Shown piece after piece: positions 4,923 through 63,500 of a DNA stretch of 64,000 nucleotides. Location of the stretch: assembly GCA_016201405.1 (NCBI GenBank), contig JACQCZ010000014.1:106631-170630 (forward strand). Direction: 5' to 3'. Source of the stretch: Candidatus Acetothermia bacterium (GTDB lineage Bacteria; Bipolaricaulota; Bipolaricaulia; RBG-16-55-9). The translations under genes were made by a program, and so were the position numbers. A model generated the notes under the pieces. The model was not told where the DNA came from. It was given only the letters and a program-made list of their open reading frames with translations, and searched no databases. Each line of letters begins with the position of its first letter. Position 1 is the stretch's first letter.

Positions 4923-5016
4923 ATGGCTCCTCAATATTGACTGCCTGCTTCAAATCCTGTACAAACTTTTTCAATGATTGTGCTGAAAATCCAGCATCAT
5001 TCATCAGGAGGTCGCT

Positions 5017-12818: not shown

Positions 12819-13691
12819 TCACTTCTGTTCGGTGCGGTGTTTCTCTCTCATAAAGTGGAGAACTTTGATATCAATCTGACCTGGCTCGCCCTGCCAGCGC
12901 ATCTCCAGGTTCTCGATATTGTGAAAATTCTGCAGGGCGTCTCGGGTGGGCTGGTCGAGCTCGCCGCTGATCGCTCCGGAGTAGAGCTTGAAATCCAGAA
13001 GCATGGCTTGAATCTCTTTAATATCACCCATTTTGAGCTGGATCGTCTCTCGGGTCTCGCCAAAGTAAAGCTGCTGCAAATGAAAGATACGCTCTAACTC
13101 TTCAATGGGTCTTGTGTGGTCATCCACTCTCAGATCAACGAAGCGATCGGTGTAGCCGCCATAGCCACCTTGGACTTTCACGACATGGAGGGATGCCGAC
13201 TGCTGGCCGCGGCGATCTCCACCAGCGGCCTGACCTGCATGCAAAGAAGCAAGGGGGCGCTCCGCGAGCGCCCCCTTCGTGCTTTCAAATGCTTTAGACA
13301 TGCCGCGCACGACTTCCCCACCGGCTAAGATATTCCCCTGGCAGGCATACTGCTGCCCAACGTGATGCCCTGCCCACGGGAAGCACTCTTCGCCAGTAAA
13401 GGCGGCCGCACGCCCATTTGAATCTACAATCCCAACTTGCCGTTTCTCTCGGTCCTTATCGGCTTCAATCAGTCTCCTTAAGACCTCTTGCGCACTCAGC
13501 CCAGAGCGGAGCAGTCGCAGACCCTGTGCGCCGAAGCTCGTATTGGCATGCGATTGCGTCGCAATCACGCCCACTTCTGCCTCTGCCCACGGAACAACGG
13601 GTCCTACCGCCAGAAACTTCGACTGGACGGCCACACCCCACTCACGAGCCTCCAAATCGCAAGCGACGATCGAGAAGGTCGAGAGTCTCAT
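12819..13691 (-). CDS. DUF1028 family protein (Ntn-hydrolase-like) with C-terminal extension
   Basis: 290 aa; characteristic N-terminus MRLSTFSIVACD...GVAVQSKFLAVGPVVPWAEA...ATQSHAN. Confidence 0.65.
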   Translation of the reverse strand: MRLSTFSIVACDLEAREWGVAVQSKFLAVGPVVPWAEAEVGVIATQSHANTSFGAQGLRLLRSGLSAQEVLRRLIEADKDREKRQVGIVDSNGRAAAFTGEECFPWAGHHVGQQYACQGNILAGGEVVRGMSKAFESTKGALAERPLASLHAGQAAGGDRRGQQSASLHVVKVQGGYGGYTDRFVDLRVDDHTRPIEELERIFHLQQLYFGETRETIQLKMGDIKEIQAMLLDFKLYSGAISGELDQPTRDALQNFHNIENLEMRWQGEPGQIDIKVLHFMREKHRTEQK

Positions 13692-13707
13692 TCTTCTAAG
13701 CTTGCAA

Positions 13708-14736
13708 CTACATCCCTTTTGCCATTGTTATCTCAGCATTCAAGGCATCTTGCTCTGGCTTCGAGAGACCACCGATAAAGGCCGGGCTAAGATCCGAATA
13801 TGAGCCCACGACAATGATCCCGACCTGTCCCATGGCAAAGTGGAGAGCGCAAAAATACGGATAGCTTCCAGCAGGAGCATCGGCTGGGATTTTCCAGTCA
13901 TAGGTTCCACCTGGCATCAGCGTTCCCGTGTCGAATGAGTTCGCCGTACCGGCTGGAATCCCCTGGGTCTTGCCATTCTGGGCGGAGTAGGCAGTAGCGG
14001 TGTGAGGCATGCTTGCGTCTGTGTTGACGAAGTGAATGGTGTCCCCTGGGCTGGCCTTGACGACCTTGGGATCAAAGACGGCCTTGCCGTCGGCAGTCAT
14101 CAACAAGTCGACCTCAATGGTCTGACCCGTCGGCTTGGGTGTGGTGACCGTGATGGCCGTGGCCTTGGAGGCGTTTGTTCCCTTGTCGTTGTCGGTGACT
14201 GTAAGCGTCACATTGTAGGTGCCTGCTGCTGCGTATGGGTGATGAACTTTTGCACCAGAGCCCTTTGTGTTGTCGCCAAAGTCCCACTGATAGTCCGTGA
14301 TCGTTCCATCTGTGTCCTTAGATGAGCTGCCATCAAAGCTGACGTCGAGTGGAGCATCTCCGCTCGTCTTGTCCGCGGTGAAGGCTGCAGTTGGGTTGGC
14401 GTTCTTGACCGTGATGTTGATCGTAACCACTTTGCCCGCTGCGCCTTTGGCTGAATTTGCGGTCACTTTAACAGGGTATGAACCAGGCTTGTCGTAGGTG
14501 TGGCTAGTGGTGGCCGTGGCAACCTTGTCCGCCTTCTTGCCATCTCCAAAGTCCCAGGAGTAGGTCACGCCCGTTTCTTTGCTGTCCGATGAGGCCGTGA
14601 AGCTCACCACTTTGCTGTCCGTCGTGGCTTTGTCTTTTGGAGCAGTGATTGTTGCAGTTGGAGCTGCTGCGCCACAACCTGTGATGATCAACCCGACTAC
14701 GAACAGACACAAAACGAACGACAGTACTTTACTCAT
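13708..14736 (-). CDS. lipoprotein with two PKD domains and a C-terminal amicyanin/plastocyanin-like cupredoxin domain
   Basis: 342 aa; lipobox LIITGC; two PKD repeats (WDFGDG, YQWDFGDN); type-1 copper ligand pattern H...C-x2-H-x2-M (FCALHFAMG). Confidence 0.7.
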   Translation of the reverse strand: MSKVLSFVLCLFVVGLIITGCGAAAPTATITAPKDKATTDSKVVSFTASSDSKETGVTYSWDFGDGKKADKVATATTSHTYDKPGSYPVKVTANSAKGAAGKVVTINITVKNANPTAAFTADKTSGDAPLDVSFDGSSSKDTDGTITDYQWDFGDNTKGSGAKVHHPYAAAGTYNVTLTVTDNDKGTNASKATAITVTTPKPTGQTIEVDLLMTADGKAVFDPKVVKASPGDTIHFVNTDASMPHTATAYSAQNGKTQGIPAGTANSFDTGTLMPGGTYDWKIPADAPAGSYPYFCALHFAMGQVGIIVVGSYSDLSPAFIGGLSKPEQDALNAEITMAKGM

Positions 14737-15604: not shown

Positions 15605-15982
15605 TCAGGAAGGTGAACCGGCCGGAGAAGGTCTGGAATTGACGAAATAATGGCGCGTAGACTTGGGAGGATAGAGTTCGCCACTCAACCCCCTCCGAAT
15701 GACCTCGGTCTTTGAAACATGAATTTCGGGGCGGCGCGATTCCAGCTCGACCTCCACCTCATAGTCGACCAATAAACATGGAACCAGGGCGATCCCCAGC
15801 GCTTTACAGGCGGCATGGCGGTGATGGCCATCTAAGATCACATACGTCTCTTCGTCTACCAGTATCGGGTAATCCTGCAAAAGCTCTCCATTTTTGATCT
15901 CTTGAATTGTCCGCGCCAAATTCGTGGGATCCACCTCTTCATGGGGGCGAAGCGTATCGACTGGCAAAGTGGCCCGGGTCAT
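15605..15982 (-). CDS. ParB/Srx-fold (ParB N-terminal nuclease-like) domain protein
   Basis: 125 aa; DGHHR motif in a ParB-N-like context. Stop/start overlap with the upstream thioesterase gene. Confidence 0.45.
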   Translation of the reverse strand: MTRATLPVDTLRPHEEVDPTNLARTIQEIKNGELLQDYPILVDEETYVILDGHHRHAACKALGIALVPCLLVDYEVEVELESRRPEIHVSKTEVIRRGLSGELYPPKSTRHYFVNSRPSPAGSPS

Positions 15983-16462: not shown

Positions 16463-17074
16463 TTAGCTGTGGAGAGAGCGGCGATCCAATTCGTTGTGGA
16501 CAACCGAAATGCAGTGATCTGCGTGGAGCACAACGGGGCCTAGGCTCACTTTTGTGCACTCTTTAAGCAGAAGCTCTTCATCGGGCGAAAAATTCTGGTG
16601 ATCGCTGAGCACAAATGCTACTGGCTGCTGAACTGGAGCAGACCGAATGTCAGTGCCGTGCTCATCTAAAACGTGACACAAGATATTGGTCTTTGCAAAG
16701 AATTCTAAAAGCACTCGCAATCCGCGTCTGGCCACATAGACACCAGGGGTGCTCTCTATCTCTTCGGCTTGGTCTGCAATATTCAATCTCTGAGCGCTTT
16801 CGATTGCATGTTTGATGAGCGCGCCCGTGCTTCGCTCATCGGGATTGAGGCGTTTTACTGTTGCGCCATCAAAACGCAGCGTGAGCTGATCCCGCAGAAT
16901 CAAATAGACTGCCACATCCTTGCGAATGCCATGGGAGAGACAGAACGAAGTGGTAATACAGCGCGCCAAGATGTCCATACGCCCGGCACTGCCCGGAAGA
17001 TCATTCAGAGTAAAATCAGGTGTGATGGAAGCTGCATGTCCCAAAATGACAAAGGTTCTCTGGTGATCAATCAT
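16463..17074 (-). CDS. trmY: tRNA (pseudouridine54-N1)-methyltransferase TrmY-like (SPOUT family)
   Basis: 203 aa; motifs LNDLPGSAGRMDILARCI...LSHGIRKDV and C-terminal LHADHCISVVHNELD match the archaeal TrmY pattern. Confidence 0.7.
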   Translation of the reverse strand: MIDHQRTFVILGHAASITPDFTLNDLPGSAGRMDILARCITTSFCLSHGIRKDVAVYLILRDQLTLRFDGATVKRLNPDERSTGALIKHAIESAQRLNIADQAEEIESTPGVYVARRGLRVLLEFFAKTNILCHVLDEHGTDIRSAPVQQPVAFVLSDHQNFSPDEELLLKECTKVSLGPVVLHADHCISVVHNELDRRSLHS

Positions 17075-17172
17075 GAGTTGTTCTTGAGGCTATTCTAGGC
17101 TCTTTTCATGCAGTTTCAACGGGAGAGCGAGTTGCTGCAGATGACGACATCGCGCTAAAATGGAGTCTCGAA

Positions 17173-18018
17173 ATGGAATTCTTAGAGAAGACTCTCTTAA
17201 TGGCCGGGAAAAATTCGAGCTTGCTTTGTGTGGGGCTTGATCCAGAGATAACACAAATTCCTTCTTCTCTTACCCGACAATATGGCGAGAACGCCGTTGT
17301 TGAATTCAATCGAAGAATTATAGAAAACACAAAAGACCTCGTCTGCGCTTATAAACCAAACAGCGCTTTCTACGAGGCGCTCGGTCCGCATGGCCTGGAG
17401 ATTCTGAGAGAGACGCGCAAGCTCATTCCCAAAGGGATCCCCATGATCTTGGACATCAAGCGCGGCGATATTGATAACACCAATCGAAAGTACGCCGAAG
17501 CGGCATTTGATGTTTACAACGCGGATGCCGTGACCCTCAACCCCTATCTTGGACTAGATTCAATTGAGCCTTTTCTTAGCTATAAAGAACGAGGGCTTTT
17601 ATTGCTCTGTCGCACGTCAAATCCTGGCGCAAAAGATATTCAAGACCTGATCTGCAATGGAAAGCCACTCTACCACGTCATGGCTGAGCGAATTCGTGAA
17701 TGGAGCTCGATCAAAAAAACTTTGCAGATTGGGGCAGTGGTTGGTGCAACTTACCCAGCGGAGCTGGTCAGCGTGCGTCAGATTTTGGGCGATGAGCTGA
17801 TCATTCTCGTTCCTGGCGTCGGCAAACAGGCGGGTGAGCTGGAGAAATCCGCAAAGGCCGCAATCAATTCTCAGGGCGAGCGAGCCGTGATCAATGCCTC
17901 ACGCAGCGTCCTCTATGCTTCACCGAATGAGGATTTTGCCGATGCCGCCCGCAGGGAAGCGATGCGCCTGCGAGAGATCATCCATCAGACGATTGAGCGG
18001 GTGACTCAGTCATCTTAA
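17173..18018 (+). CDS. pyrF: orotidine 5'-phosphate decarboxylase (long type)
   Basis: 281 aa; LCVGLDPE, KPNSAFYEALG and MILDIKRGDI motifs. Confidence 0.9.
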   Translation: MEFLEKTLLMAGKNSSLLCVGLDPEITQIPSSLTRQYGENAVVEFNRRIIENTKDLVCAYKPNSAFYEALGPHGLEILRETRKLIPKGIPMILDIKRGDIDNTNRKYAEAAFDVYNADAVTLNPYLGLDSIEPFLSYKERGLLLLCRTSNPGAKDIQDLICNGKPLYHVMAERIREWSSIKKTLQIGAVVGATYPAELVSVRQILGDELIILVPGVGKQAGELEKSAKAAINSQGERAVINASRSVLYASPNEDFADAARREAMRLREIIHQTIERVTQSS

Positions 18019-18064
18019 CGTTTGGTCAAACCGATCCACATGGCTACAATGTCAGTCAACAAGC

Positions 18065-18316
18065 ATGGCCCAGTTGATCATTGAATACTGCCATGAGTGC
18101 ATGTTTTTGGGACGAGCCATCGAGGTCGCTCAAAAGGCACTTCATCATTACCCTGATGCTTTGGAGTCGGTGACTCTTATCCCTGGCTCAAATGGAGTCT
18201 TTACGGTGATGCTTGATCATCTGCCCATTTACACAATCAATGAAGAAGGATTATTGCCATCTTCAGACCAAGTCCAAAATCTGCTCGCAAAGAAGCTAGG
18301 AGCGAAGCTCGCATGA
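18065..18316 (+). CDS. SelW/Rdx family thioredoxin-like protein (Cys-containing homologue)
   Basis: 83 aa; IEYCHEC (CxxC) at the N-terminus and LIPGSNGVF pattern of the Rdx family. Confidence 0.7.
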   Translation: MAQLIIEYCHECMFLGRAIEVAQKALHHYPDALESVTLIPGSNGVFTVMLDHLPIYTINEEGLLPSSDQVQNLLAKKLGAKLA

Positions 18317-18885
18317 AGAAGAGCACCCGAGCCTTATTTCTTGGGAGATTTCAGCCCTATCACAATGGCCATGATGCGGTCATCCGCAAAATCACGGCAG
18401 AAGTAAACGAGCTGATCATCGCGGTTGGCTCAGCTCAATACAGCCACACTCTGCGCGATCCTTTTACCGCCGGTGAGCGCATTATGATGATCACCCGAGC
18501 TCTGGCTGGCCTGAAGAGCACAAAATATGTCTTGCCCATCGAAGATATTGAGCAAAACGCGCTTTACGTTGCGCATATTCGGCGCCTCACACCCGCGTTT
18601 GATCTTGTCTATTCCAATAATTCACTTGTGATCCGGCTCTTTGAAGAGGCTGGCATTGCCGTAAAACAGCTTCCTCTCATTGATCGTGGCCATCTCTGGG
18701 GAACGAAGATTCGTGACCTAATGACCCAGGGCGGCCTATGGCAAACGTACGTGCCCCCTGCCGTATGCACAATCATTGAAGAGATCGGCGGAATCGAGAG
18801 GCTGCAGCAGATCCAGCAGAGCGATCTGCTCAGTACCGGCCCTTCGAGCAGTGCCTCCAGTCCGAGAAGAGGGGAGTCCGATTGA
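18313..18885 (+). CDS. nadM: nicotinamide-nucleotide adenylyltransferase, archaeal NadM type
   Basis: 190 aa; hallmark GRFQPYHNGH plus IAVGSAQYSHTLRDPFTAGER. Start overlaps upstream stop. Confidence 0.85.
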   Translation: MKKSTRALFLGRFQPYHNGHDAVIRKITAEVNELIIAVGSAQYSHTLRDPFTAGERIMMITRALAGLKSTKYVLPIEDIEQNALYVAHIRRLTPAFDLVYSNNSLVIRLFEEAGIAVKQLPLIDRGHLWGTKIRDLMTQGGLWQTYVPPAVCTIIEEIGGIERLQQIQQSDLLSTGPSSSASSPRRGESD

Positions 18886-19652
18886 ATCTCAGTCTGCCGC
18901 TTCAAGATAACGCAAAGCTCAAGATTGTCGTTGGACGAATCGAGCAGCACATTGCTCTCGAGACTTTTTGGCAATGTTCCAATATTAACGCGGTAGATCG
19001 GCTCGGCTATAACGATCATGGGCCCATCCATATCAAGATTGTGGCCAATCTGGCTCTGAAACTTTTGCGAATGCTCGTAAAGTCGGGAATCAAGACAAGC
19101 ATAGAGCTCAATTACAAAATGACCAGAGAGGATGCCGAGATTGTGGTCATTCTGGCAGCCTGCCTTCATGACATCGGCCACATTGTCCACCGAGCCAACC
19201 ACGAAGAGTTTTCAGTGGCGCTCGCTCCTCCGCTGATCGATGAGCTCTTGGCGGGTGTCTATGAGGGGGCACAAAAAGCGATTATGCTCTCCGAGACATT
19301 GCACGCAATCTACTCGCACCGCGCTGAGATCAGGCCGCTTACTCTGGAAGCGGGGGTCGTCAAGATCGCGGATGCGCTTGATATGGAGCACGGGAGGGCA
19401 CGCATCCCCTTCTCCAAAGGCACGCCATCCATTCATGCTGTCTCAGCCATGGCCATTGAAAAAGTGAGCATTCGCGAGGGTGAGAAGAAGCCGATCTGCA
19501 TTGACATCCGCATGTCAAACTCTGCCGGAATATATCAGCTCGACAATCTTCTCAAAGACAAAGTCGAGAGCTCGGGCATCAAAGAGTATTTTGAGGTCCA
19601 GGCTGAGATCACCGGTGAAGAGAAAAAAATTGTGAGCCGGTACGAGATTTAG
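18882..19652 (+). CDS. HD domain phosphohydrolase
   Basis: 256 aa; HD motif region CLHDIGHIVHR; translationally coupled to nadM. Confidence 0.8.
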   Translation: MNLSLPLQDNAKLKIVVGRIEQHIALETFWQCSNINAVDRLGYNDHGPIHIKIVANLALKLLRMLVKSGIKTSIELNYKMTREDAEIVVILAACLHDIGHIVHRANHEEFSVALAPPLIDELLAGVYEGAQKAIMLSETLHAIYSHRAEIRPLTLEAGVVKIADALDMEHGRARIPFSKGTPSIHAVSAMAIEKVSIREGEKKPICIDIRMSNSAGIYQLDNLLKDKVESSGIKEYFEVQAEITGEEKKIVSRYEI

Positions 19653-19966
19653 CCAGGGGTTGGCGTAATGGCGCTTCGTTGACCTTGTATTGGTTGACTT
19701 TTTACAGACCCCCGTCCTATTTTCCACGTGGGAAATTCTTGGGTGTGGGATTAGCGACCGAGTTGCACAGTACCCCTAATTGACATGTTGCACCCCAGAA
19801 GTATCTCTCGTCCCTAAAGCCGGGCTGATTCCTAGGGATTGGCCCGGCCCCCTAGGGCTCTCTCAAACTCACATCACAAATGTTGATCAAGCTCCAATTG
19901 GCCTGTCAGCACAGGCGTAGAGAATAAGATAATCAATGGGACAATGCATTCATCGAGCATGCCGCC

Positions 19967-19993
19967 TTGACAGCATGCAGATGCAGGCATAAT
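19967..19993 (+). promoter_or_regulatory. putative sigma70-type promoter for the seven-gene operon
   Basis: TTGACA at 19967-19972, 15-nt spacer, CATAAT at 19988-19993; GGAGG RBS at 20021-20025 before ATG 20031. Confidence 0.45.
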
Positions 19994-20030
19994 CTTTCAA
20001 CCAACATCGCGGGCGCGAGCGGAGGCATTG

Positions 20031-21905
20031 ATGAGGGGGGCATTATTTCGCTGGATTCTGAGAGTTCTATTCTCTCTTCTTCTGGTCCTCTCCTTCGCTT
20101 ACCAAACTGGGCTTGCAGATGTCAGTCTAGATGTCGAAGTGGGCTTTGGAGGCCAATTCATGTCCGGCCAGTACACTCTCGTCCAGGTCGTCTTGCAATA
20201 TCAGGGCCCGCCTCTCACGGGAGAGCTGGCACTTCACCAAGAGTACAAATCTCCGCTCGAGAGCGAGAAGTCCTTTTCTGAGCGGCGCACGGTGCGCCTG
20301 GGCTCAAATGTCAACCAGCTCTATCAATTCTATTTCCCCGTCTCCCGCTCTCCCTGGCCCAATGAGGATCAGCCCGCTCTCTCCATCACGCTCTCATCCA
20401 ATGGGAGCGTGGTATTTTCGAAGCGCGTTCCCCTCGCCGGCGACGTTGAGCCACAGCCGCTCGTGCTCGGAGTGAGTGAGACCAACTTTCCCCGCATGCT
20501 CACGACAGGAGAGCGGATAGAGAGCGTGGGACTCAATCAGCTGCCGGAGGACTGGCGAGGATATGACGGAGTGAGAAGAATCTATCTGGGCCGCGCGAGA
20601 ACCGACCAGCTCACCAAGCGCCAACAAGACGCGATCCAGCAGTGGATCACACGGGGCGGAGAATTCGTGGTGCTCGGCGGTGAGAATTTCTACTTGCAGG
20701 ATTCTTCGTGGCTGCGCCAGATCATTCCGTTTGATGTCTCAGGAATCGAAGCGGCACAGGCCTCGTCCGATCTGCCCACGTATGTTGCAGGCAAGCCTCT
20801 CGGGGAAGTCCTCATTCAGCGGGCTGCGATCCCACTTCTGGTAGAGCAGCGGGTCGTCAATGGCATCATCTTCTTTTCCGTGCTCGACTTATCACAGCAG
20901 ACGGAATTGTCTCAAGCCATCTGGAACGACTTGCGGCAGACCTCTTCTCTGCTCGACAATCAGCCTCCTGATCTGGGCTCAAAGATTTTGGGAAACACCC
21001 AGCTCGCTTATCCATCAAAGCCGCTCCTTGGCGCTCTGTTGATTCTTTATCTAATAGGCTTTGCCTATATCAGCCTTTGGATGCTGCGGCAGCCCCTCAA
21101 CACCTTGCTCTCCTCTCCCGAGGGCGGTGAGATGCGCAGAAAGAGGCAGGGCTGGAAGGTGCTCGCCTTTGTTGTCGGCTGGATGCTCATCTTTGCAGTC
21201 CCGAGCCTTGCCTATCTGGGCCAGCCCAGATTTCACAGTTATTTTCAGTCTCTTGAGGTCGGGTTGATCAGAGCCCAGGAGGGATCGTCCTGGGGCTGGA
21301 GCCAGAGCTGGTACAGTGTCATCTCCAAGAAGGAGCGCAGCCTCTCGCTGGCAGCCAGCGACAACTCTCTCATCCTGCCCCTGGGGCAGACGCAGCTGGA
21401 ACTGCTGCAAGAACGCCCCGATGCGTGGGATTTGGACTTTTCACCCAACCCTATGAAAAGCTGGTCCACAGAGAACCTCTATACCGAAGAGATGGTGCCG
21501 CTTGACATCGGCGTACGCGCGGACAAAGAGGGTGGAGATGTCAGAGGCTCTCGGATTCAGGTCTATAATGGCAGCCAATGGAACCTGCGGGATGCCGTGC
21601 TCTTTCGCAACGGAGTCTATTATCCCATCGGAGAGGTCCCAGCCGGAAAGTCGCTCACCGCTGAGCTTAGCGGTCTGGGACTCAATGAGTGGTCACCATG
21701 GAGTGGCTTCAAAGACCTCTGGAGCATCGAGGAGCGGGTGAAGAATGTCATCATGAATCAGCTCGGGATTACGGATGAATTGAAGAGGGATCGCAGCCAA
21801 TGGGTCTTGCTCGGCTGGGCCGAAGTTCGCGCGCTGACTCAGGCTTACCGCGAAAATCGTCAGGGACTTTCACTCATTCTCATTCGCTCCAAGGAGCAAG
21901 AGTAG
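20031..21905 (+). CDS. hypothetical exported/membrane protein, first gene of the MoxR-VWA operon
   Basis: About 624 aa; N-terminal signal peptide, two central TM helices, no recognised catalytic motif. The ORF formally starts at TTG 20028. Confidence 0.5.
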   Translation: MRGALFRWILRVLFSLLLVLSFAYQTGLADVSLDVEVGFGGQFMSGQYTLVQVVLQYQGPPLTGELALHQEYKSPLESEKSFSERRTVRLGSNVNQLYQFYFPVSRSPWPNEDQPALSITLSSNGSVVFSKRVPLAGDVEPQPLVLGVSETNFPRMLTTGERIESVGLNQLPEDWRGYDGVRRIYLGRARTDQLTKRQQDAIQQWITRGGEFVVLGGENFYLQDSSWLRQIIPFDVSGIEAAQASSDLPTYVAGKPLGEVLIQRAAIPLLVEQRVVNGIIFFSVLDLSQQTELSQAIWNDLRQTSSLLDNQPPDLGSKILGNTQLAYPSKPLLGALLILYLIGFAYISLWMLRQPLNTLLSSPEGGEMRRKRQGWKVLAFVVGWMLIFAVPSLAYLGQPRFHSYFQSLEVGLIRAQEGSSWGWSQSWYSVISKKERSLSLAASDNSLILPLGQTQLELLQERPDAWDLDFSPNPMKSWSTENLYTEEMVPLDIGVRADKEGGDVRGSRIQVYNGSQWNLRDAVLFRNGVYYPIGEVPAGKSLTAELSGLGLNEWSPWSGFKDLWSIEERVKNVIMNQLGITDELKRDRSQWVLLGWAEVRALTQAYRENRQGLSLILIRSKEQE

Positions 21906-21907
21906 CG

Positions 21908-22666
21908 GTGTCCGCGCAAGAGCGCGCATCAGTAGCCAATCCCAAGAGCACTGCCCCGAAAATCCCTTGGCTGGGAACCGATTGGGACTACTGGTTCGAC
22001 CGCGAGACGTGGTCATCCCTGATGGCGTTTCTTCTGCTGTCGGGAGGCATCTTGCTCGTTGCCTTGCCGAACACAACCGAAGTCGGCAGGCTCACTCCCA
22101 AATCCATGGAAGCGACTGATCTCTTCTCGGCCCTCTATTCAATCTTATTTGGGATTCTGGCGATCACGCTTGGACAGGCCGAGTTGTCTTGGGGACATCG
22201 GCTCAGCAGCCAGGAGCATTTTGTTCATCTATTTAGCCGTCTGGTGGTGCCGCTGGTGCTCAGTCTGCCCTACTGGATTCTTTATATCTTCGCCAATATC
22301 ATGAGCCCACTTTTAATTATTGTACTCCTTGTGCATTTTATTTTATATGGTTATGTGCTCGGGCTTTGCGGCTGGCGGCTATCGCTGATGGGGCAGTCCG
22401 AGATCTTCCAATTCAACATCAAATATCTGAGCTACTTTGGGCTGGTCGCGATTACCTTCTTTGCTGCGCCGCTCCAGTTCATCAATCCCATCTTGGCGAT
22501 CACGGAGATTTTGGGGGAGAATGGCATGGCTCCCGCACTCAATCTGTTGGGCTTCTATACCGCATGGCTGGCGCTGGGTGCGGTCATAGCGTACTTGATC
22601 TTGCACAAACTGAATACGGAGAATCGAGAAATGGAGGAGTATGAAAACGAACTATCTCGTCGTTGA
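21908..22666 (+). CDS. hypothetical polytopic membrane protein
   Basis: About 253 aa with about 6 predicted TM helices; GTG start immediately after the upstream stop (the ORF track begins at 21800, overlapping the previous gene). Confidence 0.45.
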   Translation: MSAQERASVANPKSTAPKIPWLGTDWDYWFDRETWSSLMAFLLLSGGILLVALPNTTEVGRLTPKSMEATDLFSALYSILFGILAITLGQAELSWGHRLSSQEHFVHLFSRLVVPLVLSLPYWILYIFANIMSPLLIIVLLVHFILYGYVLGLCGWRLSLMGQSEIFQFNIKYLSYFGLVAITFFAAPLQFINPILAITEILGENGMAPALNLLGFYTAWLALGAVIAYLILHKLNTENREMEEYENELSRR

Positions 22667-24380
22667 GCAAGAGGTGATTGAGGCGCGGCGGCGGTTGAAT
22701 CGCCTTCAGGGTGTGCGGCTGGGGTTGACTCTCTCAGCCTCGCTGACGCTCGTCTATCTCATTCTCTTCTTCTTTGGCTGGGTACAGTTGATTCAGCCCT
22801 GGCCGATTCTCATTCTCTTTAACGCCATCTGCGGCGGACTCGGCATGATGTGGGGAGATCGGCGTCCAACGCGCCTCCAGCACGACCTGCTCCGTGTCGA
22901 CCGCGCGCTAGGGCTTGGCGAGAAGCTCACGACGATCTTTGAGCTTCGCCGGGGTGAGCGCTCATCCGACATCTTGGAAGCCCTCTATCGCCGGATTGAC
23001 CAGAGCCACGTCGATCCCAAAGAAGTCTTCAAGCTCCCCCGCACGGAGCAGAATGGCTGGTATGCGCTCGGCGGGATCACTGCCGGCATCTTGCTGATGA
23101 TCGGGCTTTGGGGGAATGGCCTCAGTCTCCTCCATATTGAGCAATGGCTCCAAGGTCTGCCGATAAATGAGCTTTCCAGTCAACAGACTCTCCTGGGTAA
23201 AGATGCACTGGATGGCTCACAAAGCGTTTTAGGGAAGGGCCAGAATCAATCGAATGCCAAAGATAAGAAGAGTGATGACGCAGCCTGTGAAAAGCAAGAC
23301 TCTTCTTCAACAGCCCTGAGCAGCGATGCAAATTGCGTCAATGGCAGAGATCAGAATTCACCTACAGATTCGCAAAATCAGACGGCGAAGAATCAAAATG
23401 GCCAGAATATGCCGCCAAACTTTCCACAGAGTCTGTCCGATTTGCTGCAACAGCTCCAGCAGGGGAATATCTCACAAGATGAAGTGCAAAAAGATCTGAG
23501 CAGCCTCGCCAATCAGCTTCCGCCAGGCCTGTTGCAAGATATGCTAAAAGACGCAGCAAAGAGCATGGATCCTGCTGACCTTGCGAAGCGGCTGGCCGAT
23601 GCCCTCAAGGAAGCACAACGTCAGGATGAGAACCAGAAGAAGCGGGCTCAATCCAATGACAAAAATGACAACCAGCCCTCTCCTCAAGGGGGCCCAGGCT
23701 CCAAAGGCCAGGGGATCCCGGGTATGGCCTCTGGAGACCAATTGGCAAATCAGAATCAAAACAACTCGAATAAATCAGGCACAGAAGCCCCGAACAGCGG
23801 GAGCTCTTCCTCACAATCCGGTGAGAACCCAGATCAGCCCAAAGGTGGGGATCAGTCAAACCAGTCTGGGCAGGCCGGGGGCAAGCAGGGCAGCAGTGAC
23901 TCCCTCTCCCAGAATGGCAAGAGCAAAAATGACTCACCCGACAAGAAAGATGAAAACGGGAAGAGCTCTGATGGCTCCGGCACGAACGACGGATCCAATA
24001 ACAGCGGAAGTAGTAGCGGCTCCCCTGAAAGCTCATCGGATGACGAGGGCTCTGGTGGCAAAGACTCATCGGGTGGCAATGGAGCCGGTGACACCGCTGG
24101 AAATGGCAAGGATGGGAAGAAGGATCAGTCTTTGACCATGGATAAGAGCCTGCTCATCCACGGCGCCAGTCTTCCGCAGGATGCTGAGCAGCTCAAGCGG
24201 TTAATTACGCTTGGATTGCCCGTGGATTTGCAAGGCACTCAAGCCGATGGGACACCCACGCTCAAGCTCAATATCGAGCGTGTCGAGTCGCTGCTCCAGC
24301 TCCGCGAGCTTCCCCCCAATCTGAGAGCGCTGGTCCGGGCCTATTTCTTGGCTATCGCCGGAGAAAAATCGTCCAAATAA
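22641..24380 (+). CDS. hypothetical membrane protein with a roughly 300-aa Q/N/S/D/G/K-rich disordered region
   Basis: 579 aa; N-terminal TM helices, third TM near residue 150, long low-complexity polar segment, conserved-looking C-terminal 80 aa. Start overlaps upstream stop by 26 nt. Confidence 0.5.
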   Translation: MKTNYLVVEQEVIEARRRLNRLQGVRLGLTLSASLTLVYLILFFFGWVQLIQPWPILILFNAICGGLGMMWGDRRPTRLQHDLLRVDRALGLGEKLTTIFELRRGERSSDILEALYRRIDQSHVDPKEVFKLPRTEQNGWYALGGITAGILLMIGLWGNGLSLLHIEQWLQGLPINELSSQQTLLGKDALDGSQSVLGKGQNQSNAKDKKSDDAACEKQDSSSTALSSDANCVNGRDQNSPTDSQNQTAKNQNGQNMPPNFPQSLSDLLQQLQQGNISQDEVQKDLSSLANQLPPGLLQDMLKDAAKSMDPADLAKRLADALKEAQRQDENQKKRAQSNDKNDNQPSPQGGPGSKGQGIPGMASGDQLANQNQNNSNKSGTEAPNSGSSSSQSGENPDQPKGGDQSNQSGQAGGKQGSSDSLSQNGKSKNDSPDKKDENGKSSDGSGTNDGSNNSGSSSGSPESSSDDEGSGGKDSSGGNGAGDTAGNGKDGKKDQSLTMDKSLLIHGASLPQDAEQLKRLITLGLPVDLQGTQADGTPTLKLNIERVESLLQLRELPPNLRALVRAYFLAIAGEKSSK

Positions 24381-24402
24381 ATCTCATTCAACGAGGGATA
24401 TC

Positions 24403-25389
24403 ATGACCATCGAGATGCAACTGGCAAAAACAGAAGAGGTCTTCCAGAAGCTGACGCGTGACATTCAGAAAGTTATTGTCGGCCACCAGGAGACTATCCG
24501 GGGGACGCTGATCTGCCTGCTCTGTGGCGGGCATGCTCTTCTCGAAGGCGTACCCGGGCTCGGCAAGACCCTCACCGTAAAGACGCTGGGTAAATTATTG
24601 GGGCTCTCTTTCTCCAGAATTCAGTTTACGCCCGATCTCATGCCCGCAGACATTTTGGGAACCAATATCATTGTGGAAGAGGGAGGCCGGAGGGCCTTTG
24701 AGTTTTCAAAGGGCCCCATCTTTGCCCATATTGTGCTGGCGGACGAGATAAACCGCGCCACCCCCAAGACGCAATCTGCGCTCCTCGAAGCGATGCAGGA
24801 GCGCGGGGTCACCATCTCCGGCAAAACTTATGTACTGGACGAGCCATTTATCGTTCTGGCCACGCAGAACCCCATCGAGATGGAAGGCACATATCCTCTG
24901 CCTGAGGCACAAGTAGACCGCTTCTTCTTCAAGATTGTCCTCGATCAGCCGACGCAAGAAGAGCTGGACGAGATTCTCAAGCGCCACATGACATCACCGG
25001 AAGTGAAGCACATCGCCGGAAGCGCCATCTCGCGCGAGACTCTAGTCGACGCAAAGAAGCTGATGGCTCAGATCCCTATTGCGGAGCCGTTGCGCCATTA
25101 CATCGTGCGGCTGGTCAATGCCACGCATCCCAAGCGGGATGAGGCAGCTCCGCTGGTCAAAGAATACGTCGAATATGGAGCGAGCCCGCGCGCTGGCATC
25201 GCCCTTCTCTGGGGCGCAAAGGCCAATGCATTCTTAGATGGCCAATTGAACGTTCGCATCGAAGATATTCAGCGCGTCTTTGTGCCTGCATTCCGGCACC
25301 GAATCATCCGCAACTTCCGGGGCGAGGCGGAGGGCATCGCCGTCGATGAGATCTTAAAACAAGTGATCGAGAAGACTCCCGAGGTATAG
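24403..25389 (+). CDS. MoxR family AAA+ ATPase
   Basis: 328 aa; Walker A GVPGLGKT, Walker B VLADEINR, and the MoxR sensor region. Confidence 0.9.
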   Translation: MTIEMQLAKTEEVFQKLTRDIQKVIVGHQETIRGTLICLLCGGHALLEGVPGLGKTLTVKTLGKLLGLSFSRIQFTPDLMPADILGTNIIVEEGGRRAFEFSKGPIFAHIVLADEINRATPKTQSALLEAMQERGVTISGKTYVLDEPFIVLATQNPIEMEGTYPLPEAQVDRFFFKIVLDQPTQEELDEILKRHMTSPEVKHIAGSAISRETLVDAKKLMAQIPIAEPLRHYIVRLVNATHPKRDEAAPLVKEYVEYGASPRAGIALLWGAKANAFLDGQLNVRIEDIQRVFVPAFRHRIIRNFRGEAEGIAVDEILKQVIEKTPEV

Positions 25390-25395
25390 CGGCAC

Positions 25396-26268
25396 ATGCC
25401 CCTTCTGCTCGATTCAGCCTATCTCAAAAAGCTCGAAAACCTGGGTCTGGTCATTCGGGGGCGCTTTCATGGCTATATGACCGGAAAGCGGCTCACTTCC
25501 CGCTCCGGGATGAGCCTGGAATTTGCTGAATACAAAGAATATTCGCCGGGGGATGATTTTCGCTATGTAGACTGGAATCTCTATGGACGCCTTGGGAAGC
25601 TCTTTGTCAAACGCTTTAACCGCGAAGAGGACGTTCCGATCTATCTCTTTTTGGACATTAGCCATTCGATGGCCATCGGAGAAAAGCTCAATTACGCCGT
25701 TCTGCTGGCGGGCACGCTGGCCTATTTAGGACTGAAAGAATTCAATCGCGTCGGGATCTTTCCGTTTGCCAGCGATCTGGCTCTCGGCGTGCCTCCCAAA
25801 GGGAGCTACAAACAGCTCTTCCAGATCTTCCATTTCTTAGAGAAAGTCGTGCCAGCGGGAGAGACCTCCATCAATGAGTCCCTGACGCGCTTTACGCGCA
25901 TCCGCCGTGAGAGCGGGCTGGCCGTCATTATCAGCGACATGCTCAGCGAGGATGGCTTTGAAGAGGGACTGGCACAGCTCCTCTATCATGGCTATGAGGT
26001 GATCGTCCTTCATCTGTTGGCTCCCGATGATTTGAATCCAGCGTGGAATGGCGAGATTCGCCTCAAAAATATTGAAGACCAGAAGGAGATTACAGTCCAT
26101 GTGGATCGCGCTGCGCTGAACGAGTACCAGACGGCCTTGGATAATTATCGTTCAAGACTGGAAGCATTCTGTCGTGAGCGCGGCATCCGCTATGCCCTGG
26201 TCTCTACGGACAGCCCTCTTGAGAAGACAGTCTTCGAGACCTTGCGGGAAGGGGCGCTGGTTCAATGA
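25396..26268 (+). CDS. DUF58 domain protein (MoxR partner)
   Basis: 290 aa; DUF58 signature YVDWNLYGRLGKLFVKRF and LFLDISHSM; directly downstream of MoxR. Confidence 0.85.
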   Translation: MPLLLDSAYLKKLENLGLVIRGRFHGYMTGKRLTSRSGMSLEFAEYKEYSPGDDFRYVDWNLYGRLGKLFVKRFNREEDVPIYLFLDISHSMAIGEKLNYAVLLAGTLAYLGLKEFNRVGIFPFASDLALGVPPKGSYKQLFQIFHFLEKVVPAGETSINESLTRFTRIRRESGLAVIISDMLSEDGFEEGLAQLLYHGYEVIVLHLLAPDDLNPAWNGEIRLKNIEDQKEITVHVDRAALNEYQTALDNYRSRLEAFCRERGIRYALVSTDSPLEKTVFETLREGALVQ

Positions 26269-28154
26269 CCTTTCTATCGGGCATTGCGCTCTGGCTTCTA
26301 GGCCTTGGTGCGATCATCACATTTATTTATTTCTTAAAGCGCCAGGCGCGGGTGCAGCCCGTCTCGACGCTCTTTCTCTGGCAAAGGATTGAGCAGAGGC
26401 CCCAGAGCGCGCTCCGTTTTCAGTGGACCCAGCTCCTCGGGCTCATCTTGCAGTTACTGGCTCTCACAGCCATTGTGGTGGGGATTGCCCAGCCGGTGAT
26501 CTACTCTGCCAGCGGCGGTGTGGGACGAATGGCCATTCTGCTCGATGGAAGCGCCAGCATGCGAGCGCTCATGCCTTCTGAAAAGATCACACGCTTTGAG
26601 CGGGCCGTACAGCGGGCTCAAGGGTTGCTCGATGAGAATCCGGCTGCCGAGGTGACCTTGGTCGAGGCACAGACGCACAGCGCAATCCTTGTACCGCCTA
26701 CCCATGATCATTCCTTCATTCGCAAGGCTCTGAGCGACGCCAGGCCGACGTATCAGGGGAATGCTGACTCGGGCGAGCTGCTCAGCCTTCTTCAAAGTCA
26801 GAGCAGCACAGGCTATGACCAAGTTGTCCTGATCAGCGATCAAGCTGCCAAGCCGCAGCAGCAGCAATTGGGGATTGATGTTGAGTCCGTCTTGGGAGAT
26901 GAATCTTCTGAAAATATTGCCCTTACGGACTTTTCTGTGCGTGAGCAGCCCAATGGCAAGGGGTATGACTTCTATCTCCAAGCCTGGAACTCATCGAGTG
27001 ATGCAGTAAACGTTCCGCTGGATATAGAAGCCGATGGGAAATCCGTCCAGTCGGATGTGATCACCATCCCCGCGCATGGCTCTCTCTCACGAACTTTCTC
27101 ATCGTCGCTTCGCTATGCGGATGAGTTTCGAGCCAAGATCGATACCACGGCTCTTCCCGACGACTGGAGCGATGATGACGTACGCTATGCGACATCTCCA
27201 CAGCCACCCCCCTGGAAGATTTTATGGGTAGGCAAGATCAATTTTTATCTAGAGAGCTTTTTGCAGAATTCAGGAGAGGTTGACCTGACCGAGAAGGCGA
27301 CCCTGGATGAAGCGGGAGATCTCAACCGCTATGACGTGGTCCTGCTCAATCAAGTCGATCTTTCGGATGCTCAGGCTGGCGCGGGTCATTATCTGGCATT
27401 TGGCGGCTCTTTTGGAAGCTATATCCTCTCCAAAAGCATTCATGATCTGACGAGTGGCGCGGTGGATGTCCAGAAAGATGACCCACTCTTGCAAGGGATG
27501 GACCCGACCGCTTGGCGACTGCTCCACATTCCGGACGCGGCCGTCGATCCCAAGGGAGAGGTCTTATTATCTTCCGAGAGTCTTCCGTTTCTTTATATTT
27601 ATGAGAAGCCGGGTCTGCGGCTTTCGTATATCGGAGCCGATTTGGAGGCTTCCAATCTTGTATTGTCGATTGATTTTCCAATACTGATCTATCGTCTGCT
27701 CTCTTGGCTTTCTCCCCGCTCTGGGGAGAGCACAACGCTGACGGCTGGAGACGAGCTTCCGCTATCATCATTAGAAAATATAAAGAGCATTGTCGATCCG
27801 CAAGGCAAGACCTGTCAATACAATTCTTCCGCAAGCCAGTGCGGCAGCTTGGGCGAGATCGGTTTCTATCAGGCCACGCGAGCCGATGGAGAGGCCGTGA
27901 CTTTCGCCGCCAATGCGGATCCAACAGAGTCTATTTGGGAGGATGCTTCGGATGCGGCTGCAACTGCAGTGACTCCGACGAGCTCACAGCAGGCAGGGTC
28001 ACTGGGCGACACGCCGCAAGCGTTAAAAGCGGCGATCCCTGTATGGCCCTATTTGCTGGCGATTGGATTGATCTTATTACTGGCTGAGCTCTTCACATTT
28101 CACCGTCCAACGGCAATTCCATGGCTGCCCTCCCTGGGGAGGAAGAGGGCATGA
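26265..28154 (+). CDS. BatA-like membrane protein with VWA domain
   Basis: 629 aa; N-terminal BatA-type TM region, MIDAS-like DGSAS motif, C-terminal TM helix. Start overlaps upstream stop. Confidence 0.7.
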   Translation: MTFLSGIALWLLGLGAIITFIYFLKRQARVQPVSTLFLWQRIEQRPQSALRFQWTQLLGLILQLLALTAIVVGIAQPVIYSASGGVGRMAILLDGSASMRALMPSEKITRFERAVQRAQGLLDENPAAEVTLVEAQTHSAILVPPTHDHSFIRKALSDARPTYQGNADSGELLSLLQSQSSTGYDQVVLISDQAAKPQQQQLGIDVESVLGDESSENIALTDFSVREQPNGKGYDFYLQAWNSSSDAVNVPLDIEADGKSVQSDVITIPAHGSLSRTFSSSLRYADEFRAKIDTTALPDDWSDDDVRYATSPQPPPWKILWVGKINFYLESFLQNSGEVDLTEKATLDEAGDLNRYDVVLLNQVDLSDAQAGAGHYLAFGGSFGSYILSKSIHDLTSGAVDVQKDDPLLQGMDPTAWRLLHIPDAAVDPKGEVLLSSESLPFLYIYEKPGLRLSYIGADLEASNLVLSIDFPILIYRLLSWLSPRSGESTTLTAGDELPLSSLENIKSIVDPQGKTCQYNSSASQCGSLGEIGFYQATRADGEAVTFAANADPTESIWEDASDAAATAVTPTSSQQAGSLGDTPQALKAAIPVWPYLLAIGLILLLAELFTFHRPTAIPWLPSLGRKRA

Positions 28155-30721
28155 TTCGGTTCAGCCAGCTCTGGCCGCTTCTCTTACTGCTTATCCCTAT
28201 CGGACTGCTCCTCTGGCAGTGGGAGGCGCTGAAGCGCTTTACCCTCGGCGACCGCATTTCGTTTGGGGCGCGGCTCGGAGTTGTGGCGCTTGGCATCCTC
28301 GCACTCTCAGGACCGCAATTGTTGAGCTGGACGGAATCGCACTACGTCTATTTTCTGGCAGATCTTTCCAAAAGCGTGAGCCCTCAAGACCGGGGTCAGC
28401 TGCTCTCGGAGCTTCGCGCACTCGCCAAGCCGCAAGAGTACACTCAATACGGCCTGATCGTCTTTGGGGTCAAGCCGTATGTCGAAGCTCCATTCAGCCC
28501 AATGTTAAATTTGAACGAGGTCTTGACGAATGTCGATAGTGAAGGAACAGATTTGCAGGCCGCACTGGAGCTGGCCATGTCAACCTTCCCCCGTGATGGC
28601 AAGAAGACGATTGTGCTTCTTTCCGATGGCCAGCCAAGCCAGGGAGAGACGACAGAGGCGCTGGCCCGCGCCAAACGGGAAGGGGTAGAGATCTTCACTT
28701 TGCCGATGGACCCGCCAGCCTCTGAGTTTTCAATCCAGACGATCCAGGCTCCACAAGAGGTCGCAGTCCAGCTCCCCTTCTCATTCCAGAGCGTCGTCTA
28801 TGCCTCACGATCCAGCACCGGAAAGCTGCTCACATACCGCAATGAGACACTGATTGACACAAAAGATGTCGCTCTGCGTCCTGGGCTCAATTACTTTTCG
28901 TATAGCGACAAAGTGAATGACCCCGGCAGCTATGAGTACCGAGCCGAGCTTGTTGTCGCTGGCGATGCGCTCCCTCAGAACAATCATTATCGCGCATTGG
29001 TCGATGCGATCGGCGATCCGCGCATTCTTCTGGTAGAGAACAATTCTTCAGAGCAAGAATCGGTGATGGGAAAGCTGTTAAAAAACTCTGGCTATGCCTT
29101 CTCCAAAGTGAGCCTGAATGAGCTGGCGCCGACAGCCAGCTCCCTGCTCTCATACCGAGCTGTGATTATGAACGAAGTGCCGCTCAAAGATCTCACGGCA
29201 CGGCAGACCGAATTTCTAGAAAATTATGTGCGCGATCTCGGCGGAGGGCTCTTCCTCGTCCAGGGCAGGCAGTCCGTCGAAGAGTTTTATGACCGCCAGT
29301 TTGAGCAGATGCTGCCCATCACCTATGAAGGTCCGCAAGAGATCCAGCGCCCCGCGCTCGCTTTGGTGATGCTGCTCGACCGCTCCGGCAGCATGGGCGA
29401 GATCGCCGGCGGTGATACCAAGGGCAGCTATATGAAGATCGATCTCTTAAAACAGGCAGCACGAGAGGCCGTCTCCAAGCTCGATGACAACAGCCTTGTC
29501 GGCATCATCGGCTTTGACTCGACCTACGACTGGCTGGTAGACATTGGCCCCGTGAAAGGTCGGAAAGATGAGATTTTAGCTGCAGTTGATAAGCTCTATG
29601 CCAATGGCGGGACAGACATCTATCAGCCTCTCAAAGATGCCGTCGCCCAGTTGCAGAAGCTGACCGCGCGCGTCAAGCACATTCTGGTCTTCTCCGATGG
29701 AAAAGTATCCCAGCAGGGGCGCGATTTCGATCAAATCTTCCAGGAGATTGCCGGCAGCACGATCAGCGCCTCATCCATTGCCATCGGAGCACAAGCCGAT
29801 TTTGACTTCATGTGGAAGCTGGCGGATGCGGGGAGCGGCGCCAAATATCCAGTGGCCGATGCGCGGGATCTGCCACGAATCACGCTGGAAGAGATGGTGC
29901 GGCTGGAACGCGCCCGCTGGGTCAAAGGGCCATTGGGTGTCGAGGCCGGACCCTTTGCAAATCAGCTGACTGGAATTGACCCCAGCACCATCCCCAATGT
30001 CGATGGCTATGTTCTGACGTTTGAGAAGCCAACGGCGCAGACGCAGCTTCAGGTCCGTGCTGACAAAGATCATGCAGACCCTCTGGTGAGTCAGTGGCAC
30101 TATGGTCTGGGCAAGGTCTTTGTGCTCAACACCAGCTTTGAAGGCGAAGGCCTGGAGCGCTGGAAGTCCTGGAGCGGACTGGGCGAGCTGAGCTCTGAGA
30201 TTCTGAGCCAGGTCTACAGCGAGAGCACCATCAAGCCCAAAGAGCTAGCCGTCTGGACAGATTCTTCTAACTCAACGCTGAGCGTCCATGTTGAAGCGGA
30301 CCGCGACGGCAAATGGCTGGATCAATTGGTAATGAATGGGCAACTCAACACACCGGATGGCAAGTCAATTCCTCTCGACTTGGAACAGACGGGACCAGGG
30401 ACCTATCAGGCCACCGTAAAAGATCTGAGCGAAGGCGTCTATCTGCTCAATTTGGGTGAAGATTCACTCGGTCAAGTCCAAGAGGCTGTCCAGATTCCCT
30501 ATGCAGCGGAGTACAAAAAGATTGGGCTGAATGAGCCACTTTTGCAACAGATCGCAGAAGTGACTGGAGGAGAATATCTTGAGAATCCAGATCGCTTGCA
30601 AGGCCTGTTGCAGGGCCGGACACTGATCTACCGGGATATCTGGCAGGAGATTTTATTGGCAGCCCTCTTCTTCTTTCTGGCCGATCTGGCTCTGAGAAAA
30701 GTGCCTTTTCTGCACGCTTAA
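28151..30721 (+). CDS. BatB-like membrane protein with two VWA domains
   Basis: About 856 aa from ATG 28151 (ATGA overlap); N-terminal TM, two MIDAS-like motifs (DLSKS and DRSGS), C-terminal TM anchor. Confidence 0.7.
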   Translation: MIRFSQLWPLLLLLIPIGLLLWQWEALKRFTLGDRISFGARLGVVALGILALSGPQLLSWTESHYVYFLADLSKSVSPQDRGQLLSELRALAKPQEYTQYGLIVFGVKPYVEAPFSPMLNLNEVLTNVDSEGTDLQAALELAMSTFPRDGKKTIVLLSDGQPSQGETTEALARAKREGVEIFTLPMDPPASEFSIQTIQAPQEVAVQLPFSFQSVVYASRSSTGKLLTYRNETLIDTKDVALRPGLNYFSYSDKVNDPGSYEYRAELVVAGDALPQNNHYRALVDAIGDPRILLVENNSSEQESVMGKLLKNSGYAFSKVSLNELAPTASSLLSYRAVIMNEVPLKDLTARQTEFLENYVRDLGGGLFLVQGRQSVEEFYDRQFEQMLPITYEGPQEIQRPALALVMLLDRSGSMGEIAGGDTKGSYMKIDLLKQAAREAVSKLDDNSLVGIIGFDSTYDWLVDIGPVKGRKDEILAAVDKLYANGGTDIYQPLKDAVAQLQKLTARVKHILVFSDGKVSQQGRDFDQIFQEIAGSTISASSIAIGAQADFDFMWKLADAGSGAKYPVADARDLPRITLEEMVRLERARWVKGPLGVEAGPFANQLTGIDPSTIPNVDGYVLTFEKPTAQTQLQVRADKDHADPLVSQWHYGLGKVFVLNTSFEGEGLERWKSWSGLGELSSEILSQVYSESTIKPKELAVWTDSSNSTLSVHVEADRDGKWLDQLVMNGQLNTPDGKSIPLDLEQTGPGTYQATVKDLSEGVYLLNLGEDSLGQVQEAVQIPYAAEYKKIGLNEPLLQQIAEVTGGEYLENPDRLQGLLQGRTLIYRDIWQEILLAALFFFLADLALRKVPFLHA

Positions 30722-62107: not shown

Positions 62108-63500
<1,393 letters not shown>

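Follow-up and report, generated by a model that had tools for sequence, protein, structure and literature searches.

What is an archaeal-type gene of nicotinamide adenine dinucleotide (NAD) synthesis doing in a bacterial genome, and with which of its neighbours does it belong? The question is raised by four adjacent genes at positions 17173 to 19652 of a 64,000-nucleotide stretch of Candidatus Acetothermia bacterium DNA (contig JACQCZ010000014.1 of assembly GCA_016201405.1), referred to here as the window. The genes encode, in order, a type-2 orotidine-5′-phosphate decarboxylase (pyrF), a small CxxC protein of the SelT/SelW/SelH family (Rdx), an archaeal-type stand-alone nicotinamide/nicotinate mononucleotide adenylyltransferase (NadM) and a predicted metal-dependent phosphohydrolase of the HD superfamily (HD). 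An original prediction, made from the sequence, had described an operon-like block in a region whose archaeal-like flavour could reflect either lineage or horizontal transfer. Comparison with related genomes locates the conserved unit in NadM–HD; pyrF is not part of it. By analogy with known gene pairs, we propose that the block represents a lineage-typical NAD-cofactor operon built on a NadM–HD core, in which HD would be the hydrolytic partner of NadM. The rough probability we give to this reading is 0.55.

Conservation of the NadM–HD pair

Loci encoding NadM homologues were drawn from species-representative genomes, from metagenomes and from the contigs encoding selected matches, and the six-frame open reading frames (ORFs) of the collected loci were searched with the window proteins. 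The locus counts from both collection scans describe a sample and not a census, and are to be read as "at least". The relatives are about 25 bacterial loci from Bipolaricaulota ("Acetothermia" or OP1) and from organisms named "Fraserbacteria" at NCBI. In all of them HD lies 3′ of NadM, either directly or with a CinA/PncC gene in between (the window, L001/L002, L003/L004, L007–L010, L016, L087–L091, L093–L096, L099, L127, L153, L154 and L170–L172). When the ORFs of 17 bacterial loci were clustered, NadM and HD alone occurred in every one of the 17; genuine flanking genes reached five loci at most. The pair is kept down to about 52% NadM identity (p-distance 0.48), over which range the other neighbours change.

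The pair occurs in three arrangements. Rdx–NadM–HD is found in L003/L004, L007, L008, L087–L091, L093, L094 and L170; apart from L170, these are the loci whose NadM has about 63% identity or more to the window copy. The contig of L092 ends after NadM. The second arrangement, NadM–CinA–HD, is seen in L010, L099, L154 and L172. Here the intervening gene encodes the CinA/PncC domain of nicotinamide mononucleotide (NMN) deamidase (PF02464, E = 1.6e-59), and in L098 CinA likewise follows NadM before the contig ends. CinA/PncC is the only gene ever seen inserted between NadM and HD (at least four loci). In the third, NadM–HD stands alone (L016, from an NCBI "Candidatus Fraserbacteria", L096, L127, L153 and L171) and a gene for an M20 peptidase is usually next. 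Rdx is absent from the second and third of these subclades. The place of pyrF is narrower still: it lies upstream only in the window, L003/L004, L090 and L170, and there is none within 5 kb in L001, L007, L087–L089 or L091. The operon-like block first described therefore holds for Rdx–NadM–HD and not for pyrF, which is an upstream neighbour only in some lineages.

The archaeal loci are organised differently. Among the matches listed, none of HD, Rdx and CinA lay within 5 kb of NadM in about 140 loci of the archaeal type, which come from Halobacteria, Methanomicrobiales, Archaeoglobi, Methanosarcinales and metagenome contigs. The neighbour of nadM in Haloferax is a DUF62-type gene (PMC8305020). 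A literature search, with most subscription journals outside its coverage, returned no description of the NadM–HD linkage, of NadM–CinA–HD or of an Rdx::NadM fusion.

Genes and junctions of the block

All four genes lie on the forward strand, and the ORF listing and the profile searches agree on both the positions and the identities originally given to them. The pyrF gene (17173..18018) encodes 281 residues and scores 244.9 bits against TIGR02127 pyrF_sub2 (cut-off 110.6). Rdx (18065..18316, 83 residues) has a CHEC motif and scores 58.9 bits against PF10262 (cut-off 22.6) and 42.0 against TIGR02174 (cut-off 34.2). NadM (18313..18885, 190 residues) scores 213.4 bits against TIGR01527 arch_NMN_Atrans (cut-off 181.2), and HD (18882..19652, 256 residues) scores 39.6 bits against PF01966 (cut-off 22).

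The match to TIGR01527 covers NadM residues 6–168, equivalent to 1–166 of the 167 positions in the model, and the score against NF002243 is 228.1 bits (cut-off 127). The sole Pfam domain is CTP_transf_like. NadM aligns over its full length with the enzymes of M. thermautotrophicus (PDB 1EJ2) and M. jannaschii (1F9A) at E ~4e-51, compared with E = 2e-6 for the bacterial NadM-Nudix structure 2QJO; against NadM-Nudix models its scores fall far under the cut-offs. An alignment of 17 bacterial and archaeal homologues has 53 invariant columns, which include GRFQPxHxGH (G11-R-F-Q-P-Y-H-N-G-H20 in the window) and PFTAGER (P50–R56). By these sequence measures the protein is a member of the archaeal-type NMN adenylyltransferase family (TIGR01527/PRK01153) and, as had been recognised at the outset, not a bacterial NadD. 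No nadD or other NAD gene was found among the approximately 45 larger window ORFs scanned.

The proposed coupling of NadM to both its neighbours is borne out at the junctions. Read from the sequence, the stop codon of Rdx and the start of NadM share an ATGA at 18313–18316, and the stop of NadM and the start of HD share a TTGA at 18882–18885. The TTG start this assigns to HD is consistent with the aligned N-termini of 22 orthologues. The three genes lie on one strand and their order is kept in L003, L007, L008, L087–L091 and L170; taken with the overlapping junctions, this points to co-transcription of Rdx–NadM–HD. A gap of 46 nt separates pyrF from Rdx and contains a weak sigma-70-like promoter match on the forward strand (18023..18050, TGGTCA-16-TACAAT, 9 of 12 positions), which could give Rdx–NadM–HD a separate start. 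Beyond HD, a forward-strand hairpin with a T-run after it (19678..19708; stem of 7 pairs, loop of 7, then TTTTTACAGA) resembles a terminator by consensus match only, and is the probable end of the transcription unit. Promoter and terminator matches in the region are not more numerous than in shuffled sequence. After the hairpin about 320 nt are without a gene, and the next ORF begins at 20028.

We note that the whole gene-free stretch 3′ of HD (19653–20027, about 375 nt) has no Rfam match at E ≤ 1 and contains a weak promoter-like match at 19694–19723. An Rfam scan of 16900–20100 at E ≤ 1 found no NAD riboswitch or other RNA; a scan of the entire window at gathering thresholds gave no match, and a tRNA search of the window found none.

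Origin of the block

The window is bacterial by gene content, encoding bL25/Ctc, a bacterial Pth, RuvX, a LolCE-type permease and Prs; the first four of these rule out an archaeal origin for the window. A 488-kb contig of an NCBI "Candidatus Acetothermia bacterium" encodes proteins that match the window NadM and Rdx at 100% identity. Outside Bipolaricaulota and Fraserbacteria, the best NadM relatives among the matches listed are archaeal, at about 50–56% identity. The nearest relatives of HD outside Bipolaricaulota are likewise archaeal, and the GC content of the block (0.46–0.53) is slightly under the window mean of 0.532. These are the features that would be expected if the block were an archaeal island acquired recently by this genome.

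The composition of the individual genes does not fit such an island. GC content, GC content at third codon positions (GC3) and codon usage of NadM, HD and pyrF are inside the range of 34 other window genes. Only the short Rdx gene (252 nt; GC 0.464, GC3 0.488) falls slightly under that range, its codon-usage score remaining inside, and Rdx is of bacterial type. The arrangement is found throughout the related bacterial lineages, to about 55–60% identity. As NadM and HD are apart in archaea, a ready-made block cannot have arrived from there.

The trees point in the same direction. A neighbour-joining (NJ) analysis of 157 NadM sequences gathered the HD-linked copies in a single bipartition in 123 of 200 bootstraps; the point tree adds two archaeal NadMs to that group, L048 (Archaeoglobi) and L057. 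In the HD tree, 99 of 100 bootstraps set the archaeal or unlinked proteins apart from every NadM-linked one. Across 18 loci the pairwise distances of the two proteins co-vary (r = 0.91), a value that none of 2000 Mantel permutations reached. Since the trees were built by NJ from short proteins and have no outgroup, they fix neither the donor nor the direction of transfer, and to that extent they count against our account of the block.

The grouping of the bacterial copies, the co-varying distances and the matching GC content and codon usage together indicate an ancient origin and vertical inheritance, and we regard a recent island as very improbable. NadM and HD appear to be either an old acquisition from archaea or the product of deep shared ancestry; they would have become linked within bacteria and then been inherited vertically. 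The original prediction had left lineage and transfer side by side and had named the result that would speak against an unusual transfer. That result is what the comparison gave: NadM–HD is the norm in the relatives, and the window copies cluster with those of bacterial relatives. Lineage is thus the half of the alternative that is upheld, and recent transfer the half that is not.

Function of the HD protein

The HD protein is more distinctive than the label HD hydrolase first suggested. Its HD identity is secure (PF01966), but it had been treated as generic, and it belongs by sequence to an uncharacterised, mainly archaeal family, with about 60% identity to the protein of Aciduliprofundum. 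Identity to the archaeal orthologues (Aciduliprofundum boonei and other Euryarchaeota) is 57–62%, and, grouped at 50% identity, the family has 152 clusters within E ≤ 1e-30 and 509 within E ≤ 1e-10. Residues H50, H96-D97 and D164 do not vary among 23 family members. Together with H100/H107 and H141/H146, invariant as well, they match, in a sequence alignment alone, the extended H..HD..H..H..D pattern. This pattern is the superfamily sequence signature of a dinuclear site, for example in YqeK (PMC8177086), and HD probably carries a dinuclear metal site of this kind. An AlphaFold model based on a 23-sequence alignment (mean predicted local distance difference test score, pLDDT, of 86; predicted template-modelling score, pTM, of 0.86) consists of a helical HD core (residues ~10–165) and a small α/β C-terminal domain (184–256). 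Foldseek comparison of the model with the PDB gave weak matches only, the best being the C-terminal halves of PPX/GppA proteins, with template-modelling (TM) scores of 0.36–0.43. Searching the PDB by sequence found only the uncharacterised E. coli HD protein YedJ (3GW7); E was 8e-4 for the single-sequence query and 1e-6 for the family profile. Neither kind of search brought up a close relative of characterised function.

HD has remained locked to NadM over deep divergence and the only insert between them is CinA/PncC of the NAD pathway; for these reasons HD is proposed as the hydrolase of NadM. NadM would convert NMN or nicotinate mononucleotide (NaMN) and ATP into NAD or nicotinate adenine dinucleotide (NaAD). 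HD, by analogy, would act on nucleotides or dinucleotides as a diphosphatase or phosphodiesterase and clear away NadM products that are wrong or surplus; related nucleotides such as diadenosine tetraphosphate (Ap4A) or ADP-ribose are alternative candidate substrates. HD would thereby serve NadM by proofreading or turnover. To this core one subclade, that of the window, would have added Rdx, a presumed thiol-redox accessory that is fused to NadM in one lineage, and another would have added CinA/PncC, the NMN deamidase, between NadM and HD.

The proposal has precedents in the Nudix domain of NadM-Nudix enzymes and in YqeK, an HD diphosphatase whose gene is clustered or fused with that of NadD and which hydrolyses wrong-nucleotide analogues of NaAD, 8-oxo-GTP and Ap4A (PMC9426524, PMC8177086). 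Several observations weigh against it. No YqeK structure is among the Foldseek top 50 for the HD model, HD has no match to TIGR00488/COG1713 at E ≤ 0.01, and the HD family profile finds YedJ alone in the PDB at E ≤ 10, though YqeK structures are deposited. Sequence, profile and fold searches thus rule out YqeK membership, and the analogy between HD and YqeK is one of gene context alone. No NadM–HD fusion was found in the best 150 family representatives, judged by length with Pfam searches on the ten longest; one of these ten has a YHS domain, one a partial deacetylase domain and the others no informative extra domain. In archaea the HD orthologues adjoin an FKBP26-type gene and not NadM, so that the ancestral function of the family need not concern NAD. 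Finally, in the Aciduliprofundum-type loci L005 and L167 HD has, at a distance of about 1.3 kb, a gene of PF04038 (archaeal dihydroneopterin aldolase), which makes an MptB-like pterin role possible.

The same observations favour the idea that gene order here is without shared function, HD being a housekeeping enzyme unrelated to NAD that was captured early beside NadM. It might then be an MptB-like 2′,3′-cyclic phosphodiesterase of pterin synthesis, a nucleotidase or some other phosphohydrolase. Nor are the junctions decisive against capture, as 4-base overlaps are common in compact genomes. A captured gene would, however, have to stay beside NadM to about 52% NadM identity while all other neighbours change, and tolerate between the two genes no insert other than one of the NAD pathway. 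The pterin variant also meets the difficulty that PF04038 is absent at L006 and L168, and that a gene on the opposite strand separates PF04038 from HD. The hints towards MptB (MJ0837 of M. jannaschii, an HD-superfamily phosphodiesterase acting on dihydroneopterin 2′,3′-cyclic phosphate) come from that PF04038 neighbour and from the published statement that haloarchaea are without a close MptB (PMC8305020). On balance we find chance capture unlikely, if a serious contender, and prefer HD as the hydrolytic partner of NadM.

Rdx and its possible partners

The Rdx motif C9-H-E-C12 is encoded by tgc cat gag tgc. Both CHEC cysteines are therefore ordinary TGC-encoded residues and the protein is without selenocysteine. 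The CxxC is invariant in 15 orthologous copies, none of which has an in-frame TGA there. These copies were taken from the fetched loci, as the Rdx search itself, word-based and with a short query, found just two proteins. Rdx matches the bacterial SelW-like structures 2OKA, 3DEX, 2OBK and 2FA8, with E values from 4e-8 (2OKA) to 6e-6. By sequence it is of the bacterial SelW-like kind, with a predicted thioredoxin-like fold. The operon is accordingly a chimera, with a bacterial-type Rdx beside an archaeal-type NadM and HD.

In one lineage Rdx and NadM form a single ORF of 282–285 residues (proteins P0062 and P0066–P0080, and also L001/L002 and L095). The fusion contigs are many and independent, P0066 occurring on 35 contigs and P0067 on a contig of 1.79 Mb; recurrence of the same fusion on dozens of contigs from different samples rules out an assembly artefact. 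The fusion argues for a functional link between the two proteins.

Other evidence suggests another partner. A gene for an AhpC/TSA-Redoxin peroxiredoxin lies divergently, just upstream of Rdx, in L008 (2–325), L089 (4075–4605), L090 (3011–3538) and L170 (1593–2120), and 4.5 kb upstream in L001 (3012–3539), on the reverse strand in each case; it is missing from the window. The ancestor of this subclade may have had the order pyrF–AhpC(−)–Rdx–NadM–HD, with AhpC lost in the window. Furthermore, the NadM alignment has no conserved cysteine on which Rdx might act. These two points tell against the accessory role that our proposal gives to Rdx. We considered whether the cysteines of NadM or HD track the presence of Rdx, and dropped the idea, which again does not help the proposal: NadM has none, and HD follows only loosely, C32, C94 and C206 being conserved in the Rdx-linked loci and also in L096 and L171, which have no adjacent Rdx.

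It may be, then, that Rdx is the CxxC reductant of the neighbouring AhpC/TSA peroxidase and that both its place before NadM and the fusion are by-products, a view with which the absence of Rdx from the other two NadM–HD subclades also agrees. Against it, the window, L003, L007, L087 and L088 have Rdx–NadM–HD without an adjacent AhpC. Rdx shares its strand with NadM and overlaps or adjoins it; in L090 the divergent promoter region leaves Rdx on the side of NadM; and the Rdx::NadM fusion is maintained in an abundant population. We therefore hold it doubtful that AhpC is the whole explanation. Rdx could also serve both, acting as AhpC reductant in addition to its role beside NadM.

A stronger version of the redox idea would make Rdx–NadM–HD a thiol-redox-controlled unit of NAD homeostasis, in which Rdx senses or relays the redox state of the cell and tunes synthesis by NadM against nucleotide or dinucleotide hydrolysis by a diiron HD. 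This we consider speculative and less probable than the AhpC explanation. If true, it would be the first functional assignment for a prokaryotic SelW-like Rdx and for the archaeal HD family.

As a separate observation, Rdx and NadM of L090 are separated by an inserted gene (4205–4942, forward strand) whose 245-residue product has Fic/DOC and HEAT-repeat regions.

Other genes of the window

The genes that had lent the region its archaeal-like flavour are present in the window. Pus10, an archaeal-type tRNA pseudouridine(54/55) synthase (2201–3454, reverse strand), is full-length and scores 491.7 bits against TIGR01213 (cut-off 200). TrmY, a tRNA m1-pseudouridine54 methyltransferase (16463–17074, reverse strand), scores 221 bits against NF002560 (cut-off 183), and pyrB/pyrI lie at 62111–63501 on the forward strand. 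The flavour is real for NadM, HD, Pus10 and TrmY, but not for type-2 pyrF or pyrBI, which are not archaeal markers. Pus10 and TrmY are regarded as archaeal, Pus10 also as eukaryal (PMC7912444). The presence of both genes suggests that T-loop position 54 of Bipolaricaulota tRNAs is modified in the archaeal style. In L003/L004, too, TrmY lies close to the block.

Further features were noted on both sides of the block. At 15605–15982 (reverse strand) the gene of a 125-residue ParB-N-like protein overlaps the stop codon of the thioesterase gene upstream; L003/L004 have it at the same position. The protein's best NCBIfam likeness is to the N-terminal part of SerK, an archaeal ADP-dependent serine kinase, with E = 8e-16 and far under the cut-off. 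At 12819–14736 (reverse strand) a DUF1028 and peptidoglycan-binding protein adjoins a lipoprotein with PKD repeats and, at the C-terminus, a cupredoxin-like (Copper-bind) domain; both are found in synteny in L003/L004. Two proteins, at 3529–4467 (forward strand) and 42172–43011 (reverse strand), resemble the LipJ adenylate-cyclase model at its cyclase-domain end only (E = 3e-21 and 7e-24) and may be nucleotide cyclases.

Downstream of the block, 20028–30721 is a long co-directional cluster on the forward strand. It includes two large proteins without a family match (625 and 288 residues) and, at 22641–24380, a 579-residue protein with a very long low-complexity region rich in Ser, Gly, Asn, Gln and Asp. 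Next come a MoxR-like ATPase, a DUF58 protein and vWA-type proteins (629 and 866 residues), and the cluster resembles Bat/aerotolerance-type operons.

Significance

Automatic annotation already names each of the four genes correctly, so the immediate gain is modest, and nothing in the finding contradicts current understanding. A carbon monoxide dehydrogenase (CODH) of an archaeal-like kind has been described in some Acetothermia (PMC9586279). NadM and HD join Pus10, TrmY and CODH as archaeal-type genes in Bipolaricaulota, and such genes bear on the exchange or sharing of core functions between early-branching bacteria and archaea. Two families gain hypotheses: the highly conserved HD family, with about 60% identity between its members from Bipolaricaulota and those from Euryarchaeota, and the prokaryotic SelW-like Rdx proteins, for the study of which the natural Rdx::NadM fusion offers a handle.

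Comparison with known systems

The closest parallel to the proposed unit is the nadD–yqeK pair of Firmicutes and mycoplasmas. In both cases the gene of a pyridine-mononucleotide adenylyltransferase is tightly linked to that of an HD hydrolase, and the invariant residues of the window HD family fit, at the level of sequence, the extended H..HD..H..H..D pattern that YqeK carries. They differ in that the window adenylyltransferase is an archaeal-type NadM and not NadD, and in that the window HD, at 256 residues with an extra α/β C-terminal domain, is of another family. Fusions are known for nadD–yqeK, whereas none of NadM with HD was seen among the representatives searched.

The bacterial NadM-Nudix proteins (Synechocystis slr0787, 2QJO) resemble the window pair in coupling an enzyme of the NadM class to a nucleotide-diphosphate hydrolase, an activity that is predicted in the case of HD. 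The hydrolase there is a fused Nudix domain, which is an ADP-ribose pyrophosphatase, whereas the window has a separate HD protein. The archaeal NadM enzymes (MJ0541, 1F9A; 1EJ2) are like the window protein in full-length alignment, motifs and size; the window copy is distinguished by its place in a bacterial genome, within an Rdx–NadM–HD operon.

Rdx shares its small size, family and N-terminal CxxC with the SelW-like entries 2OKA, 3DEX, 2OBK, 2P0G and 2FA8, which are titled hypothetical; unlike them, it is operonic with NadM and is fused to it in one lineage. YedJ (3GW7) is like HD only in the HD core, over about 90 residues and very distantly; it is without the C-terminal domain and gives no help on mechanism.

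If our proposal is true, NadM–HD would follow NadD–YqeK and NadM-Nudix as the third case in which an NAD-forming adenylyltransferase has been independently paired with a hydrolase of nucleotide diphosphates. It would strengthen the idea that the adenylyltransferase step in general calls for a hydrolytic partner, as "proofreader" or for turnover.

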